The notes: generated from the sequence alone by a model not told the origin. A stretch of 58,828 bases of DNA from Candidatus Kapaibacterium sp. (GCA_036847245.1 DAIUAL010000002.1:1-58828), one strand, 5' to 3'. Numbered from the stretch's first letter, positions 27,861-50,899 are shown. Translations and numbers: made by a program.

Positions 27861-28247
27861 TTATGCAGCAAGTTGAAGAAATTGTTGCGGTGTTTGATTT
27901 GCTTGTGCAAGCGAGGCAACAGCAATCTGCTGTTGTACCTGCGAGCGTGATAGTTGCAGTGTCTGCTCGGCATCGCTTGCTGATTGCAAGGACTGCTGAT
28001 TACTCAGTTCTTGCACGGCATTTTGTGACTGTTGTGCTACGCGTGCTTCGTTGGAGATTGCACCGGTGTCAGGCACATTCTGTGAAGTCCGTGCCTGCTC
28101 TCCTTGCTGTGTTCGGCGCGTACTTTGTGTTTGTTGCGTCTGCTCAACACGCTGGACTTCCTGCGTACGCTCTGCTTCTTGTGTACGCTGAGCTTGTTGT
28201 ACTTGCTGAACGGGCTGTTGCAACTTGCTGATGTCGGTAGTATTCAT
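27861..28247 (-). CDS. Gln-rich low-complexity protein with a flagellin/YjfB-like C-terminal helix (hypothetical)
   Basis: 128 aa with degenerate RTQE/QTQQ repeats. C-terminus: LSRSQVQQQIAVASLAQANQTPQQFLQLAA. Terminator orientation supports the minus strand. Confidence 0.55.
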   Translation of the reverse strand: MNTTDISKLQQPVQQVQQAQRTQEAERTQEVQRVEQTQQTQSTRRTQQGEQARTSQNVPDTGAISNEARVAQQSQNAVQELSNQQSLQSASDAEQTLQLSRSQVQQQIAVASLAQANQTPQQFLQLAA

Positions 28248-28332
28248 GATTTGACTGAAAAACAGTATTATACACCCGCATCCTGCGTGAATTGCTCATC
28301 CGTATTGCATTAACAAGGTTATGCGAAGATAC

Positions 28333-28376
28333 AAAAAATGTATGCTTGTTATGCTCAAGCATTGACTACATTTTTT
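28333..28376 (-). terminator. Rho-independent terminator closing the blaI-blaR1-like operon
   Basis: Nested inverted repeats AAAAAATGTA/TACATTTTTT and TGCTTG/CAAGCA immediately after the stop at 28378. A T-run follows on the minus strand. Confidence 0.75.
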
Positions 28377-28377
28377 G

Positions 28378-29073
28378 CTATCGCAAGATCGATTTCGTTA
28401 TCACCATTTCGACAAGAAAATACTGCTCCAGTCGAAATTTTGGTCCGAATTCCTCAGGCGGAACATCAGACTGTGCCACATTGCAATACGAACCACTACC
28501 ATCGGGATATATCGTCGGTGGAATAATAGCGCACAGATAGAACGGCTTACCAATCGGCACTGCCAATGTTGTATTTGCCCCAAGGAAATCTTTCAAAGCA
28601 TAATCTTCCTTGATAGGCAATAAAGCATACGTAAGCTTTCGACTACTGAACTGTGGTGTACTTATCTGCATTCGTAGCTTATCATCTTGTATTTTACAAA
28701 TAAATCGAAAGGATGCCGAATCCTTTTTGATCATAAAAAAATCATCAATGGTGCCATCTATCAATGTATCTGTTTTGACAAGTTTGCCTCGCTTGAATTC
28801 TTTGACAAAGAGCTGGTAAAATGTGCCTTTCAAACTTGTACTCTTGAAATGTACCAGCTGAATAGCAAGATTCTCAAAGCGCATGAGGTGATTGAGCGAT
28901 TCATTACCTGTGCTATAGTCTAAACGAAGTATTGCCACTGAATCAGAACCTTGCGCATGTGTCACACATGGCAACAAAAAGAACAGAGAGAATGCCACAG
29001 TTATGTGCGCGATAATATTTATGTATGGTATCATCATGAAAAAGAATTGATGAGAAAAAATGACCGCGAACAA
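28378..29073 (-). CDS. Hypothetical exported protein, third gene of the blaI-blaR1-like operon
   Basis: Hydrophobic N-terminus ending ...LLPCVTHAQG. No recognisable family. It starts 33 bp downstream of the M56 gene; alternative starts lie at 29037/29034. Confidence 0.55.
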   Translation of the reverse strand: MFAVIFSHQFFFMMIPYINIIAHITVAFSLFFLLPCVTHAQGSDSVAILRLDYSTGNESLNHLMRFENLAIQLVHFKSTSLKGTFYQLFVKEFKRGKLVKTDTLIDGTIDDFFMIKKDSASFRFICKIQDDKLRMQISTPQFSSRKLTYALLPIKEDYALKDFLGANTTLAVPIGKPFYLCAIIPPTIYPDGSGSYCNVAQSDVPPEEFGPKFRLEQYFLVEMVITKSILR

Positions 29074-29106
29074 GATACTGTGGCATATTCCACTGCTTAT
29101 CCATGA

Positions 29107-31863
29107 TTACCAATCCGTCAGTAACTCAGTAATTTTTTTCGTGCTGAGTCCTTCCTCTTTGAGTTTTTTCAACTTTTTGATCGAGATTCCAAGCACGCCG
29201 ATTTCGCTGATTTCATCGGAGGTAAAACCCATTCCTTTTGCTTCGCGCACCCATTCGATACTCACACCTCGCACGCCAATTTCTGCAATATCATCAGAGT
29301 TCAAGCCAAGCTTGCGGAGTTCAGAAGCATAGTCGGGACGAATACCACGTACGGCAAGTTCCATTGTTTCATCAGTCGAGAATCCTTGTTCCTTATATGC
29401 TTTGGCAGTTTCGGGCTTGATACCTCGCACACCATAATCCATCGCGGCATGCACATCAAAACCTTGTGCTTGATATACTTTTGCACGTTCGGGATCAATA
29501 CCACGCACGGCAAGTTCCATTGCATCATGATCAGAGAATCCTGCTGAACGGAATTTTTTGGCTGTTTCAGGTTTGATACCGCGAACGGCATACTCGAGCA
29601 TTTCACGATATGCAAAGCCCGCCGCTTTGTACTCTTTCGCTTTTTCAGGACTGATGCCACGAACCGCGATTTCCATTGCTTCATCGTCCGGGACACCGGC
29701 ATCGCGGAGTTTTTTAGCAGTTTCGGGTTTGATACCGCGCACGGCATATTCCATAGCATCATCGGTAGCAAAGCCAAGCTCTTTGTATGCTTGGGCTGTT
29801 TTCGGAGTAATGCCACGTACGCCAAGTTCGTACACCTCGTGCCCTTTAAAACCTGCGGCTTTGAGTTCTTTGGCGGTTGTAGGCTTGATTCCTCGTACAC
29901 CCAATTCCTTTGCTTCGTCTGTAGAAAATCCGGCATCTTTATATTCCTTCACCGTAGCAGGACGCAAACCACGTACACCAAATTCTACAGCTTCATTGCG
30001 AGTGAATCCCTGCGACATAAAGGACGACGCTACGGCAGGCGAAACACCAACCACACCAAAAGATTGAATATCATCGACTTTCATACCCTGTGCAAGTGCA
30101 TCTTTGACATACGATGGCTTCACACCGGTAAGAACAAAACCCACAACATGATTGAGCGACAAATTCATTCCTTTGAATGCTTCGAACTTACTGAGTTTTG
30201 TTCCTGCCAAGGCAACATCATAGAGTAACATATCCGTAACGGGACTATATCCCATTGCTTTAAGCTCGGCAATAGCTTTAGTATCAGCTGTAAAGCGGTA
30301 TGTTCCTTTGGCTTTACCACGGGCATTGACTGTTCCCTTCATACTGAGTGTACCGAGTTCAAAGGGCAGAGTGCAAGAAATTTCACCTTCTTTTGCAAAA
30401 GATTGCGCAGATAGACCTCGAAATTTATCAAGAGAGTAACGGCTGTATATGTGATAACCGATGCCATCATTTGGTTCATTTAAGCGCAAGGTAACGCGGT
30501 CATCATCACGCAGTTCTGCCGCCCATTCGCCTACAGGCTCTGCGTTGGGATCAAGCCGGTCTTTGGTACGATTGAACACGACATGGTCACCATAGATCAT
30601 GGTATCATCATCACGTTCAACAGAATCTTTTTTGGTTTTGCGTTTGTCACGTTCAGCGGTCAGACCAATGGGCTCAGCGATGGTTTCAACAACAGCATCT
30701 TTGACAACTGTTGATGTTTTAGCAACAAGTTCCTGCACTTCTGTGTTGGTGCCGAGAACAAGCATAAGAGCAATCGTCAAGGCAAGTGCTGCCGAGAAAT
30801 AACCGCTGTGCAAGCGGGGCGTGTCGACAGGTGATTGCAATAAGCGTTGGATACGATGAAGAAGCATATTCTTTCCTCCTTTGCCGGGGAAAAATTGTGA
30901 AGACGAGAATGGATTGATGAGAGAAGAATACTGAACAAGCGCGGAGAGTGCCGTAGCAATAGCACGAGAATCTCCCGTTACACTGAGCGCAATATCATCG
31001 CAACAGTGTTCACGCTCTTGGTTGATAATTCCTGACAACCACCACACCGCGGGATGATAAAACAGGATACTTTCGACAATAGACTGCACGATATTCACAG
31101 CAAAATCACGCCGAAGAATATGAGCCATTTCGTGAGCAAGAATTGCTTCGACTTGTTGCGGTGTCAGCCCCGCAATCATGCCCACCGGAAAAAGAATCAT
31201 CGGCTTGAGAATACCAATCGTCATTGGCACGCGAGCAAGCGTAGATTCTACTACCTCAACTGTTGTGGAGAGTGCGATTTTTTCGGCAATCGATTGTACC
31301 GTCCGTTGCCAGACTTCGGGCAGAGGTTGTACACCCTCTGTACGCAGTCGCCGCACATACCATGTGCTTAAAAAAAGTTTTCCCAAAAAGACCACGACTC
31401 CGCAGAACCATAGTGCTACCATGAAGTCGATGTGTTCATTGATAAAAGTTTGCCATGTTCCTTGAAGTGCTTGTAAGCGTTGGAGCAATGTGGGTAGAGA
31501 GCTTGCTGTAACACTCTGCGTCATGGTTGCATTACCTTGCGACAAGGATGATGATATCGACTGCGAAGAAAGAGACTCTTGTGAGACACTGCTCATGACA
31601 GAAGCACTGCGAATACTCACAAGTGGCTGTGCTGAAGAATATTCAATGAATGCCGTTCCACACACAATACAAAAAAGCAAAGCCAAACCACCAAGTGCTA
31701 CACGATAGACATATTCTGACTCGCGCTCATCGCCACGAGCACGCAAGCGATGAAATACAACACCGGCAACCAAGGCGATCAAGGCACCCTGCCACAAAGA
31801 ATGAATCAATGCCCACCCAATAGCATATAACAGTGTCGAGCCGGTCGAGGAAAATGCAAGCAT
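29107..31863 (-). CDS. M56-family (BlaR1/MecR1-like) membrane metalloprotease signal transducer with a C-terminal 26-aa repeat array
   Basis: N-terminal TM segments, the zinc motif ILAHEMAHILRRD and the conserved FYHPAVWW, then a final TM segment. After a ~210-aa unassigned region, the last ~347 residues (about 572-918) form 13 tandem repeats. Confidence 0.85.
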   Translation of the reverse strand: MLAFSSTGSTLLYAIGWALIHSLWQGALIALVAGVVFHRLRARGDERESEYVYRVALGGLALLFCIVCGTAFIEYSSAQPLVSIRSASVMSSVSQESLSSQSISSSLSQGNATMTQSVTASSLPTLLQRLQALQGTWQTFINEHIDFMVALWFCGVVVFLGKLFLSTWYVRRLRTEGVQPLPEVWQRTVQSIAEKIALSTTVEVVESTLARVPMTIGILKPMILFPVGMIAGLTPQQVEAILAHEMAHILRRDFAVNIVQSIVESILFYHPAVWWLSGIINQEREHCCDDIALSVTGDSRAIATALSALVQYSSLINPFSSSQFFPGKGGKNMLLHRIQRLLQSPVDTPRLHSGYFSAALALTIALMLVLGTNTEVQELVAKTSTVVKDAVVETIAEPIGLTAERDKRKTKKDSVERDDDTMIYGDHVVFNRTKDRLDPNAEPVGEWAAELRDDDRVTLRLNEPNDGIGYHIYSRYSLDKFRGLSAQSFAKEGEISCTLPFELGTLSMKGTVNARGKAKGTYRFTADTKAIAELKAMGYSPVTDMLLYDVALAGTKLSKFEAFKGMNLSLNHVVGFVLTGVKPSYVKDALAQGMKVDDIQSFGVVGVSPAVASSFMSQGFTRNEAVEFGVRGLRPATVKEYKDAGFSTDEAKELGVRGIKPTTAKELKAAGFKGHEVYELGVRGITPKTAQAYKELGFATDDAMEYAVRGIKPETAKKLRDAGVPDDEAMEIAVRGISPEKAKEYKAAGFAYREMLEYAVRGIKPETAKKFRSAGFSDHDAMELAVRGIDPERAKVYQAQGFDVHAAMDYGVRGIKPETAKAYKEQGFSTDETMELAVRGIRPDYASELRKLGLNSDDIAEIGVRGVSIEWVREAKGMGFTSDEISEIGVLGISIKKLKKLKEEGLSTKKITELLTDW
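29110..30150 (-). repeat. Coding tandem repeat, 13 units of 78 bp (26 aa)
   Basis: Units run from HVVGFVLTGVKPSY... to IGVLGISIKKLKKLKEEGLSTKKITE. Core consensus: GVRGIxPxxAKxxKxxGFxxxExxE. Confidence 0.85.
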
Positions 31864-31933
31864 GAGAACACCTTTCGGGAAAATGCAGTGAAAAGAGAGA
31901 GTATTTGTGATCGATAAATATGGGGGTGTGCAA

Positions 31934-32374
31934 CTATTTGCTTTTCAAGAGCTTTTGAATTTCTTCCATTTCTTCTTTCGAGGGTGAGTAATTTCCAAGC
32001 GCCTGCTTGACAAGTTGCATGGGCGAGCCATGAAAAACAGCATCCATGAATTTTCCTAAGAGTGCTTTTTGCGTGTCTTCACGGGAGACAGTTGCAGAGT
32101 ACAAATGCGTTTTGTTGCTCTCATCGCGTCGAACTAATCCTTTTTCTGCCATGATCTGCATGATCTTGAGTGTGGTGGTATAACCGATTTCTCCCTCAAG
32201 CCCTTTTTGCACTTCTTTCGCATTGAGCATATCATTGACATCGCGAACGGATGCCGGTTGATGCTCCCACAAAATTTGCAGAATGGCTAATTCAGCATCA
32301 GTGGGCTTTACGGATGATGTTGAAAAAAAAGAACGCATCGTTTTTTTGACTGAAGATTTTGATGCAGATGCCAT
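31934..32374 (-). CDS. blaI: BlaI/MecI/CopY family transcriptional repressor
   Basis: Winged-helix core (AELAILQILWEHQPASVRDV...GYTTTLKIMQIMAEKGLVRR). No C-terminal Cys cluster, so it is not CopY-type. The track ORF opens with TTG at 32389; the first ATG is at 32374. Confidence 0.85.
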   Translation of the reverse strand: MASASKSSVKKTMRSFFSTSSVKPTDAELAILQILWEHQPASVRDVNDMLNAKEVQKGLEGEIGYTTTLKIMQIMAEKGLVRRDESNKTHLYSATVSREDTQKALLGKFMDAVFHGSPMQLVKQALGNYSPSKEEMEEIQKLLKSK

Positions 32375-32434
32375 AGTATATGCCCTCAAAGTATTTCAAA
32401 GATTGTTTTTGTGAGTTGTCTTGCTGTTATTATC

Positions 32435-32450
32435 TACGAAAAATTTCGTA
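32435..32450 (-). promoter_or_regulatory. Operator-like dyad 1: TACGAA-AAAT-TTCGTA
   Basis: Perfect 6-bp inverted arms. The dyad centre lies about 68 bp upstream of the blaI ATG (32374). Confidence 0.45.
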
Positions 32451-32506
32451 GAAAAGTTTCAAAAAAAGACGAAGATATTACTTGCTATTTTCTTCCGCCT
32501 GATTTA

Positions 32507-32522
32507 TACGAATTGTTTCGTA
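32507..32522 (-). promoter_or_regulatory. Operator-like dyad 2: TACGAA-TTGT-TTCGTA
   Basis: Same arms and spacing as dyad 1. Confidence 0.4.
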
Positions 32523-32530
32523 GATAAACT

Positions 32531-32546
32531 TACGAAGTATTTCGTA
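32531..32546 (-). promoter_or_regulatory. Operator-like dyad 3: TACGAA-GTAT-TTCGTA
   Basis: Same arms and spacing, 24 bp centre-to-centre from dyad 2. Dyads 1 and 3 share the flank TTTCGTAGA-A-GTTTCAAAAAA. Confidence 0.4.
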
Positions 32547-32596
32547 GATAGTTTCAAAAAAGTTGTGAAGAGATTGCAAAAAGTACAACAATCCAC

Positions 32597-32633
32597 AAAA
32601 AAATCCCGCATAAGCATACAGCTGTGCGGGATT
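32597..32633 (-). terminator. Rho-independent terminator for the HMA lipoprotein gene
   Basis: Stem AATCCCGCA/TGCGGGATT with a 14-nt loop, followed by T7 on the minus strand. Confidence 0.75.
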
Positions 32634-32670
32634 ATGTTGTGTTGATTGTGCGGGATTATGTTGTGTTGAT
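32623..32670. repeat. Perfect 24-bp tandem duplication (TGTGCGGGATTATGTTGTGTTGAT x2)
   Basis: Copies at 32623-32646 and 32647-32670 are identical. Copy 1 supplies the right arm of the terminator stem. Confidence 0.95.
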
Positions 32671-32704: not shown

Positions 32705-33079
32705 TTAATGTGTCTTTGCACCTGCTTCACGATACTTACAGCATTTCGGAAGTCCTGCATAGGTTGCATCCTGTGCTTTGGTTGTTTCTATATCATGACC
32801 AACCGATACGACTTTATCTTGAATAGCTTTGAGGTTTGTTTTGCTGTCATCAAATTTCACCGCAAGCATTTTTGTATTTTTATCCCATGTTGCCGATTGA
32901 ACGCCCTGCACTTCTTTGACGGCTTTTTCAATGCGTTTTTTGCACGAACCGCAATTGCCTGATACTTTGATTGTTTCTGCCTTATCCGCAGAAAATGCTG
33001 AAGCAGCAGTGCAACCCGCGATGATAGCACTAACAACCACAAGGCGTTGCCATGAACGGCGCAAAAAGAATGTTTTCAT
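32705..33079 (-). CDS. Heavy-metal-associated (HMA) domain lipoprotein
   Basis: Lipobox (IIAGC), an HMA fold with a CxxC motif (SGNCGSCKKRIEKAV), and a C-terminal CC pair. Confidence 0.8.
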   Translation of the reverse strand: MKTFFLRRSWQRLVVVSAIIAGCTAASAFSADKAETIKVSGNCGSCKKRIEKAVKEVQGVQSATWDKNTKMLAVKFDDSKTNLKAIQDKVVSVGHDIETTKAQDATYAGLPKCCKYREAGAKTH

Positions 33080-33117
33080 AGAATCAGTTCCTTAAAGTGA
33101 ACGAAGAGGTAATGTGT

Positions 33118-33759
33118 ATGTTAAAAGCAAACAAATTTACAACAATGTTGGTTAGCATACTGATTGCCAGTGCACTTTTTGATGTGGGAATTGCACTATT
33201 GTGGTATCATGAGTTACCCATACGTGTTCTACCGGAACATGCTCTCTGTATTCCTGAAAATATTGCCGCTTTATCGGTACACAATATTCAGTCGCAGAAA
33301 AAACCTCTTAAATCACTGTATGCACAACAACCTCTTTTACTTTCGGTATATCTTGGTGCGGGTTGCCCGATGTGCGTGATGACACTCCAACTTTTATCGC
33401 AACATGCCGACCGCGTCCGCGGATATGGTTGGGAACTTGCTGCTCTCAGCAACGATACACCCGAAGAAAATAGCGTTACTTTAGAGCGTCCGCAGGGTGA
33501 TAGCAGTTTTGCACAGCCCGGTGGTGCATTCAGTATTCCCCTCTATTCAGACATCAACCATACTGTGATGGAAGCCCTACGATGCTATCGCCCCGATACC
33601 GATACCGAACGACATGGACTTTTTCTCGTGGATACCGATGGAAAAATTCTCTACGACACCATTGATCGCCGCCCCATCGACGATCTTGAACCCATTATTG
33701 AGCGTATTCGTCATTATCGCACTACAAAAACACGGAGAATTGCCGAAAAGAAATGGTAA
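33118..33759 (+). CDS. Membrane-anchored thioredoxin-fold (AhpC/TSA/redoxin-like) protein
   Basis: N-terminal TM segment and a CxxC motif (GAGCPMCV) in a redoxin-like context. The ATG at 33118 follows AGAGG by 8 nt; the track ORF starts with GTG at 33097. Confidence 0.65.
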   Translation: MLKANKFTTMLVSILIASALFDVGIALLWYHELPIRVLPEHALCIPENIAALSVHNIQSQKKPLKSLYAQQPLLLSVYLGAGCPMCVMTLQLLSQHADRVRGYGWELAALSNDTPEENSVTLERPQGDSSFAQPGGAFSIPLYSDINHTVMEALRCYRPDTDTERHGLFLVDTDGKILYDTIDRRPIDDLEPIIERIRHYRTTKTRRIAEKKW

Positions 33760-49978: not shown

Positions 49979-50899
49979 ATGCGCCCTTTCGTATTCTCTC
50001 TCCTATGCTTTATTCTTGCATCGGCATTCTCTACACTAACACTCTCTGCCATGCCCTTGCAAAAGCCAACCAAGACACAATGCTTGGAACGTATTCACTC
50101 CATTGTGAGCAAATACAAAGCATCTGTGGGTGTTGCGGTTATTCAGCCGGACACACGCGATACACTTGTCATCAATGGCAACAAGCATTTCCCCATGCAG
50201 AGTGTGTTTAAATTTCATATTGCTCTAAATATTCTTCATAGTATCGATCAAAAGAAATATAGACTCACCGATAGCATTCGCCTCCGGAAAGCTGACTTGG
50301 ATAATGACTTGTGGAGTCCACTGCGCGAGAAGTATGGGCGCACTGGCATAACACTCACGCTTGATGAAATTCTTCGCCCTACGGTGGCACAAAGCGACAA
50401 TGTTGGATGCGATGTCCTGCTCCACAAACTTGGCGGACCAAAGGCATTGCAAACTTATCTGCACAAGAATGGTATTCGTGATATTGCTGTTGCCATCAAC
50501 GAAGCAACCATGCAAGCGCATTGGGCGAGACAATACGAAAATTGGTCAACACCTTTGGCATCTGCACAAGCACTCTTAGCAACATTTCACGCGAAAACAT
50601 TACTCTCCAAAGAAAGCACCGAGTATCTTTGGAATGTTATGGCGGGCACAACAACCGGTGCCAACAAACTCAAAGCACTGCTACCAGCAGGCACAACAGT
50701 TGCGCACAAAACAGGATGGTCAGGCGCGAAGAATGGTCTTACTGCCGCATCGAATGATATTGGCATGATCGTGCTACCCAATCAACAGCGTGTGGCAATT
50801 GCCGTATTTGTTGGCGAGTCGTATGAAAACGAAGACACTAATTGTCTCATCATCGCAGAAATTGGCAAAGCCGTGTGGGATTATTATACCGCGCAATAG
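49979..50899 (+). CDS. bla: Class A beta-lactamase
   Basis: Signal peptide, SxxK (MQSVFKF), SDN (AQSDNVG), an omega-loop Glu candidate (INEATMQ) and KTG (AHKTGWSG). Confidence 0.85.
   Translation: MRPFVFSLLCFILASAFSTLTLSAMPLQKPTKTQCLERIHSIVSKYKASVGVAVIQPDTRDTLVINGNKHFPMQSVFKFHIALNILHSIDQKKYRLTDSIRLRKADLDNDLWSPLREKYGRTGITLTLDEILRPTVAQSDNVGCDVLLHKLGGPKALQTYLHKNGIRDIAVAINEATMQAHWARQYENWSTPLASAQALLATFHAKTLLSKESTEYLWNVMAGTTTGANKLKALLPAGTTVAHKTGWSGAKNGLTAASNDIGMIVLPNQQRVAIAVFVGESYENEDTNCLIIAEIGKAVWDYYTAQ

Follow-up and report, generated by a model that had tools for sequence, protein, structure and literature searches.

A BlaI/M56 regulatory unit with a non-penicillin sensor and a predicted exported cargo in an uncultured Candidatus Kapaibacterium

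Here we describe a three-gene unit on the minus strand of a 58,828-nt stretch of DNA from Candidatus Kapaibacterium sp. (GCA_036847245.1 DAIUAL010000002.1:1-58828)—the whole stretch is called the window below. The host is an uncultured Ignavibacteria-type bacterium, and its genome is 97.7% complete. The unit consists of a gene for a repressor of the BlaI/MecI/CopY family (blaI), a gene for a BlaR1-like membrane zinc protease of the M56 family, and a gene for an exported protein that we call X. Taken together, these genes probably form a signal-triggered proteolytic switch of the BlaIR family, autoregulated and inducing one exported cargo, X. The locus adds one more well-supported case to a design described recently and is not a new kind of system; what is specific to it is the operator sequence, a sensor with a solenoid of 26-residue repeats, two cargo families (X, and a second family, Y, in sister lineages), and the swap of cargo between these lineages.

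Sequence and comparison place both regulatory proteins in known families. The repressor matches Pfam Penicillinase_R (PF03965) at 1.8e-22, with 80.3 bits against a cut-off of 22.6 and with profile positions 2-114 of 115 covered; its residues 22-145 match M. tuberculosis 2g9w (the best PDB match by sequence), BlaI 1sd4 and MecI 1okr. It is the sole BlaI-family gene in the host genome. The protein falls outside BlaI and MecI proper—the NCBIfam BlaI and MecI models give 22-34 bits against cut-offs of 180-250, and the staphylococcal scissile pair N101-F102 aligns to Q-A (LVKQ-ALGN). The motif containing this Q-A, LV.QALG, is kept in all ten aligned members of the lineage.

The partner protease is encoded by the only M56 gene in the host genome and matches Peptidase_M56 (PF05569) at 9e-24 (84.6 bits against a cut-off of 31). 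Its zinc and catalytic motifs, HEMAH at residues 244-248 (HExxH) and EHCCD at residues 285-289 (ExxxD), are invariant in the alignment of relatives. Hydropathy gives transmembrane segments at residues 18-37, 50-78, 143-168 and 351-376, and the first 380 residues, as modelled by AlphaFold, align in Foldseek with the transmembrane and protease part of BlaR1 determined by cryo-EM (8exr_A), with probability 1.0, TMt 0.58 and an rmsd of 4.3 over 186 columns. In this model the protein has the BlaR1 topology, with four transmembrane segments, the protease domain between the third and the fourth, and a C-terminal domain across the membrane; the sidedness is a prediction, in which the ~540 C-terminal residues would face the periplasm like the BlaR1 sensor.

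The M56 protein has no penicillin-binding (transpeptidase-like) sensor domain and, in this respect, is not of the BlaR1/MecR1 type. Its Pfam matches at E up to 0.1 include neither PF00905 nor a beta-lactamase-type domain, and the blaR1_generic model, whose cut-off is 400 bits, aligns only with residues 137-314 and reaches 74.4 bits there. What is modelled for the ectodomain is a disordered linker, a beta domain at residues 444-526, and a helical solenoid, in which each 26-residue repeat folds into two short helices of nine residues, one every 13 residues (AlphaFold, pLDDT 80-90). We consider this solenoid a candidate non-canonical sensor. The repeats match by sequence only the designed helical repeat 5cwc, and Foldseek found no structural match to the ectodomain model in the PDB. 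Among 5.8 billion proteins, only 14 clusters have the form with these repeats; of the database homologues of the M56 protein, one bears the label Ignavibacteria bacterium.

The predicted autoregulatory operators of the BlaI-like repressor are three perfect TACGAA-N4-TTCGTA dyads, which precede its ATG by 60-170 nt. Shuffles of the window contain 0.11 such dyads on average, and none of 100 shuffles contains three. Because a -35-like element sits just 5' of the first dyad, the dyads would overlap the promoter core; a second such element, with its own dyad, suggests a second copy of the promoter-operator (Table 1). There is no other dyad of this type in the window, and the host genome holds one dyad cluster only. 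A genome-wide search with this dyad, which the initial annotation had proposed as a way of defining a regulon, was run and returned only the own promoter and one further perfect dyad, inside the rimP coding region, which we take as chance. A wider regulon in the host genome was rejected: genome-wide there are 22 dyads with one mismatch, none of them in a cluster, whereas the reversed control gives 39. With perfect dyads only at its own promoter and in rimP, and one-mismatch sites below the control, the system therefore appears to control only itself and the genes co-transcribed with it. Also rejected as a repressor target was the class A beta-lactamase of the window (49979-50899; Beta-lactamase2, 9.4e-36), which has no dyad, as had already been noted from the sequence.

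The regulator pair and its operators have been kept well beyond this genome. The blaI-M56 pair is found in nine of the ten same-family genomes that we compared and in two other families of the order, and all 11 tabulated loci of relatives, together with the loci L043 and L044, have dyads, two or three in number, in the ~100 bp that precede blaI. These dyads vary in their spacers and are invariant in their arms, forming a clear phylogenetic footprint at the level of sequence comparison. A T-rich run and TG(C/A)AAC stand 4-5 nt 5' of the first dyad in 10 of the 13 blaI promoters set out and in all six of the Y promoters described below. By this comparison, the conserved unit is a bicistronic, predicted self-repressed blaI-M56 switch.

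In sister lineages the same operator is found in front of a different exported protein. A scan of five relatives for the dyad returned extra sites, which in four genomes lie directly upstream of an orthologous gene, Y. The product of Y is ~440 amino acids long, has a signal peptide and the motif NCTGWC(F/Y)EDYVKTELSFF, and has no match in Pfam or NCBIfam; its gene is unlinked to blaI-M56. Perfect dyads precede Y in G001 (two), G003, G005 and G007, and in G002 and G006 paired dyads with one mismatch stand at the same place, with the same TGAAAC prefix. All of these Y-promoter dyads carry the TGAAAC/TGCAAC prefix of the blaI type. The same dyads directly before Y in six same-family genomes indicate that the repressor there controls its own operon and one exported protein. 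Y is present in six of the ten family genomes, was not found in G000, and is absent from the host genome. X and Y are not related by sequence; a relationship between them was rejected at an hhalign probability of 0.2%. These comparisons suggest that X is a lineage-specific accessory cargo inside the operon and not a part of the core switch, with sister lineages placing Y under the same operator in trans.

A further observation concerns G008, in which an extra perfect dyad (L086:1501-1516, equivalent to C106:6951-6966) overlaps the first codons, counted from the first ATG, of an ABC-permease gene. The gene is the downstream member of two tandem ABC-permease genes that are MacB-like by eye; the extra dyad may be due to chance or may mark another target.

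The mechanism that we propose is taken from the BlaI/BlaR1 paradigm; that BlaI is cleaved, what kind of signal acts, that X is co-transcribed and what X does are all inferred. A dimer of the BlaI-like repressor would bind the three dyads overlapping the two TTGAAAC-type promoters, keeping blaI, M56 and—by read-through—X switched off. The M56 protein would sit in the inner membrane with its zinc-protease domain in the cytoplasm and its ~540-residue linker, beta domain and solenoid in the periplasm. An envelope or periplasmic cue acting on this ectodomain would activate the protease, and the active protease would remove the repressor, directly or indirectly, leading to de-repression. The only output evident in the host genome would be more BlaI, more M56 and more exported X.

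The place of X in this scheme is the part that has to be weighed. In its favour, the gene lies on the same strand as M56 and 69 nt after it, with no strong terminator between them and with strong ones flanking the whole unit; we count 69 nt, rather than the 33 nt obtained from a TTG start, because the gene caller of the protein database starts X at the ATG at 29037, giving 219 amino acids. A metagenome contig (L005) has the same order as the window—M56, X, a Gln-rich protein and a pirin—with the C-terminal part of M56 65% identical, X 68% identical, and a gap of 63 nt between the two. In two further loci (L006 and L007) BlaI, a short M56 and X occur in succession, although their BlaI and M56 show little or no detectable relationship to those of the window; the gap between M56 and X there has no copy of their own dyad, which is of the AACTAT-N5-ATAGTT type. 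Because M56 genes are rare, with one in this genome, chance is an unlikely reason for X to stand behind two M56 pairs that are unrelated; this is a rough estimate rather than a formal test.

Several observations count against X as the induced cargo, and some against the switch itself. The closest relative by M56 (L043, 90% identical) has a terminator directly after M56, followed by a DUF5916 gene and not by X; upstream of its M56, a CHASE sensor, redoxin, HMA gene and blaI are arranged as in the window. Among the nine same-family genomes with M56, none has X beside it. Most X homologues, at ~17 other loci, have no adjacent regulator, and the gap between M56 and X in the window contains a weak hairpin with a U-run. 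Four genomes (G009, G010, G020 and G035) have perfect dyads only at their own promoter, with no visible cargo. Finally, because Q-A replaces N-F in the repressor, cleavage at the position equivalent to N101-F102 is not assured. The three-gene order, whose conservation the initial annotation had set as a check, is accordingly only partly conserved and does not form a fixed unit—it is kept in L005 only, and X is missing from it in the closer L043 and in the nine family genomes.

Some of these observations can be explained if X is a mere neighbour with its own promoter, inserted or retained between the blaI-M56 operon and the terminator and not controlled by BlaI. The varied contexts of X in Flavobacteriaceae fit such a history, as do the absence of a dyad from the M56-X gap and the lone blaI-M56 of L043; however, in the short same-strand gap neither a significant terminator (z -1.0) nor, on this strand, a sigma-70-like promoter is seen, the M56-X arrangement has been kept in L005 down to 65-68% identity, and X stands behind BlaI and M56 in a second, unrelated lineage. 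We therefore consider an independent X unlikely. The weak hairpin and U-run could possibly act as a leaky attenuator. A comparison of L043:6754-7023 with window 29038-29106 shows that the first ~15 nt after the M56 stop match closely and that the likeness then fades, with a terminator and DUF5916 following in L043 where the window has X, the Gln-rich protein and pirin; this marks a rearrangement breakpoint just 3' of M56.

X is also found next to regulators of other kinds. Three separate lineages have it behind an ECF sigma gene, in a cluster of genes on one strand, namely L010:3055-6588 (Sediminibacterium), L072:3363-5625 (G218) and L074:3395-6356 (G003), and in L008 it lies beside a divergent histidine kinase and an OmpR-type regulator. 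The G003 copy, a distant homologue, is the only X found in the ten same-family genomes; the gene after it encodes a transmembrane protein with a C-terminal sorting domain of the type IX secretion system (T9SS). At the X loci of Flavobacteriaceae no BlaI or M56 was found, either by tblastn and phmmer with the proteins of the window or by inspecting the neighbours.

Such company, together with the predicted export of X to the compartment that the sensor faces, would also be expected if X were a periplasmic co-sensor or a ligand-presenting partner of the M56 ectodomain—a part of the signalling rather than its output. We find this quite improbable: the solenoid-bearing M56 occurs without X in nearly all relatives, the one family genome with X has it under an ECF sigma gene, the two M56 proteins with which X is paired have ectodomains unrelated to each other, and most X genes have no signalling neighbour. 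Similarity between X and the M56 ectodomain was looked for and rejected (hhalign probability 0.06%). The initial annotation had made X part of a candidate envelope signalling module; X is better read as cargo than as a participant in signalling. That the regulated product is an exported protein without a family, as it had also stated, is likely.

X itself has an N-terminal hydrophobic signal peptide, from which export is predicted, followed by a beta-rich domain of ~185 residues. Its C-terminal motif, DGSGSYCxVAQS..PE.FG......YFL..M, is invariant in the family alignment and includes one invariant cysteine; a His precedes the Tyr of YFL in at least 90% of members. There is no Pfam or NCBIfam match. 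A word-indexed search of 5.8 billion proteins gave 10 homologues, 5 of 401 sampled genomes of the phylum have a member, and the family comprises 244 clusters at E<=0.001 among 1.84 billion representatives, mostly in Bacteroidota, with named members in Christiangramia, Salinimicrobium, Salegentibacter, Formosa and Sediminibacterium. Structure prediction, which had been recommended for this protein, gave a beta-rich AlphaFold model (pLDDT 77, pTM 0.73) but no significant Foldseek match in the PDB or BFVD; the best PDB matches, all non-significant (E 0.01, TM 0.2-0.3), are the beta-sandwiches of UNC119, ApaG and RhoGDI. The GC content of X is 40% against 45% for the window with equal GC at third codon positions (0.40), so that composition is uninformative on foreign origin.

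A role for the module as a CopY- or PetR/PetP-type switch that responds to copper or to thiol stress, with a functional tie to the neighbouring HMA lipoprotein and membrane redoxin, is very improbable, even though an HMA gene (1.5e-11) lies directly upstream with a divergent AhpC/TSA redoxin beside it, L043 has the same neighbours, a thioredoxin-fold gene follows X in L006, X has its invariant cysteine, and PetR/PetP sets a precedent for BlaI-type repressor/protease pairs that answer copper (bioRxiv 10.1101/2020.07.31.226407): the 146-residue repressor has no cysteine, which excludes the CxCx4CxC metal hook of CopY (the repressor reaches 35.4 bits with TIGR02698, CopY_TcrY, whose cut-off is 121.95), no segment of the M56 ectodomain is rich in Cys or His, the HMA gene has its own terminator, neither it nor the redoxin gene is preceded by a dyad, and in the relatives of genus g3 the genes upstream of blaI are unrelated ones.

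A proteolytic switch with an exported cargo has a close counterpart in C. difficile, and the initial description of the unit as undescribed does not survive its publication. CenI-CenR-CDR_0474 consists of a BlaI-like repressor, an M56 protease that lacks the transpeptidase domain, and an orphan exported protein (Kurtz et al., J Bacteriol 2026, PMC13492132). CDR_0474 lies 215 bp downstream and is the strongest CenIR target, induced ~500-fold on CenIR depletion; the same study sorted ~15,000 M56 proteins into 254 architectures with diverse C-terminal domains, with only ~6% of M56 proteins carrying a domain that binds beta-lactams, and found 96% of M56 genes near a blaI-like gene (PMC13492132). 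The window has the same gene order: blaI immediately precedes the gene of an M56 protein that has no transpeptidase domain—a pairing kept in the relatives—and an exported protein follows (at 69 nt here, 215 bp there). In both systems this protein is small, lineage-restricted and just downstream, and neither regulon contains a beta-lactamase; the activating signal of CenIR has not been reported. The two differ in phylum, with a Gram-negative envelope here, and in operator sequence. The sensor described here has ~540 residues with a beta domain and a repeat solenoid, whereas the CenR tail is short and largely unstructured, and X is a 219-residue member of a 244-cluster family, whereas CDR_0474 has 136 residues and is exclusive to C. 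difficile (PMC13492132). The CenIR regulon was measured by RNA-seq; regulation here is read from operators only. De-repression of X in the manner of CDR_0474 would fit the closeness of the genes and the terminators on either side, and the operator before Y in relatives speaks for the principle.

The classical systems, BlaI/BlaR1 and MecI/MecR1 of S. aureus and B. licheniformis, share with the window the repressor fold (1sd4, 1okr), the M56 transmembrane and zinc-protease core (8exr, TMt 0.58; HExxH and ExxxD), and dyads with TAC...GTA arms at an autoregulated promoter; the sequence of sensor, protease and loss of repressor is presumed to apply here as well. They differ in their penicillin-binding sensor, in their N-F scissile pair (Q-A here), and in their cargo, which in the window is neither a beta-lactamase nor PBP2a. 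Atypical BlaI/BlaR pairs without a sensor domain are known from M. tuberculosis (Rv1846c/Rv1845c), M. abscessus (BlaIR) and P. aeruginosa (PvmSR) (bioRxiv 10.64898/2026.08.03.742534). Like these, the pair described here combines a BlaI-family repressor—in our case with M. tuberculosis 2g9w as its best PDB sequence match—with an M56 protease unable to bind beta-lactams, and the roles of the atypical pairs lie outside antibiotic resistance. However, their proteases are essentially without an ectodomain, in contrast to the large structured one here, and their regulons are broad (energy metabolism, virulence), whereas the operator here occurs only at its own operon. In Synechocystis sp. PCC 6803, PetR/PetP responds to copper and governs the switch between petE and petJ (bioRxiv 10.1101/2020.07.31.226407; PMC7896320). 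It resembles the window in that a BlaI-type repressor is removed by a partner membrane protease on a non-antibiotic cue; unlike it, the repressor and protease here have no metal-binding signature, and the HMA gene lies outside the operator-controlled unit.

Most BlaI/M56 pairs have no beta-lactam sensor, and for CenIR and PvmSR no signal that activates them has been reported. In this setting the locus offers an uncluttered case for comparison: the system is present in single copy, its operator is legible from a phylogenetic footprint, its regulon is apparently a single exported protein, and the cargo is exchanged between sister lineages, with X inside the operon here and Y placed in trans in the others. 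The minimal regulon is convenient for heterologous reconstitution, by which it could be found what a structured non-penicillin sensor detects. The locus is thus useful for annotation and as a test bed, and leaves the picture of how such switches work unchanged. More speculatively, and with considerable doubt on our part, X and Y could be interchangeable envelope-stress effectors that bacteria of the Bacteroidota group plug into any transmembrane proteolytic switch, and the motif of X could be the signature of a periplasmic enzyme or binding protein not yet described; if so, the solenoid of 26-residue repeats would represent a novel class of domain that senses an envelope cue in the periplasm.

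The layout of the locus agrees with the initial annotation in its main elements: the three minus-strand open reading frames (31934-32374/32389, 29107-31863 and 28378-29073), the three dyads and the strong terminator are all present. Its BlaI/M56 pair with a non-penicillin sensor is likewise upheld, by the Pfam matches and the missing penicillin-binding domain, as is its self-contained character, since BlaI gene, M56 gene and operator cluster each occur once in the genome. Strong terminators stand on both sides of the blaI-M56-X unit. Upstream, the HMA gene is closed by its own terminator, and the unit therefore has its own 5' boundary; downstream, the stem of the terminator 3' of X lies between an A-run and a U-run, because of which it looks bidirectional. 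Folding found no structure in the gap between blaI and M56. Coordinates are collected in Table 1.

Table 1. Features of the blaI-M56-X unit in the window, and dyad sites upstream of Y in relatives.
Feature	Position	Strand	Details
BlaI/MecI/CopY-family repressor	31934-32374	-	146 aa from ATG, zero cysteines
M56 BlaR1-like membrane zinc protease	29107-31863	-	918 aa
26-aa repeats in M56	29122..30057	-	twelve, exact period; M56 aa 603-914; G/A-V-R-G-I-x-P...AGF...
X, exported protein (predicted)	28378-29037	-	219 aa; 231 aa counted from TTG at 29073
Operator dyad 1 (predicted)	32531..32546		TACGAAATACTTCGTA (minus-strand reading); orthologous dyads in all relatives
Operator dyad 2 (predicted)	32507..32522		TACGAAACAATTCGTA; 24 bp from dyad 1
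Operator dyad 3 (predicted)	32435..32450		TACGAAATTTTTCGTA; 60 nt before blaI-like ATG; kept in L043
Distal -35-like element TTGAAAC	32551..32557	-	4 nt 5' of dyad 1; putative promoter role
Proximal -35-like element TTGAAAC, second promoter-operator copy	32456..32462	-	TTTTTTTGAAACTTTTC-TACGAA arrangement as at dyad 1; also in L043
M56-X spacer	29038..29106	-	weak hairpin then AUUUUUUC, short U-run; -11.8 kcal/mol, z -1.0, not significant
Strong intrinsic terminator 3' of X	28331..28378	-	-17 kcal/mol, z -4.3; 0/200 shuffles fold equally well
Terminator of upstream HMA gene	32595..32633	-	hairpin AAUCCCGCA...UGCGGGAUU then U7; -19.7 kcal/mol, z -3.7
Y upstream dyad sites	L045:1501-1537 (G001), L047:1501-1516 (G007), L048:1501-1516 (G005), L059:1501-1516 (G003), L063 (G006), L065 (G002)		

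Three observations concern the neighbours of the unit. Genes of the thioredoxin fold (AhpC/TSA type) recur near X or the BlaI module, at window 32705-33759, L043:2147-3199, L006:3300-4001 and L009:3931-4941; their recurrence, together with the invariant cysteine of X, may be a coincidence or may reflect a thiol link. On the minus strand at 27861-28247 the window encodes a Gln-rich protein of 128 amino acids with a flagellin-like C-terminal helix (...LAQANQTPQQFLQLAA) and weak NCBIfam flagellin matches (1.3e-4); it is not at that position in L043, and in L005 (2347-2814) it keeps X and pirin as neighbours. Lastly, a perfect 24-bp tandem duplication (caacacaacataatcccgcaca x2) at window 32623-32670 overlaps the 5' arm of the HMA-gene terminator, and at this site in L043 the terminator sequence differs from that of the window.

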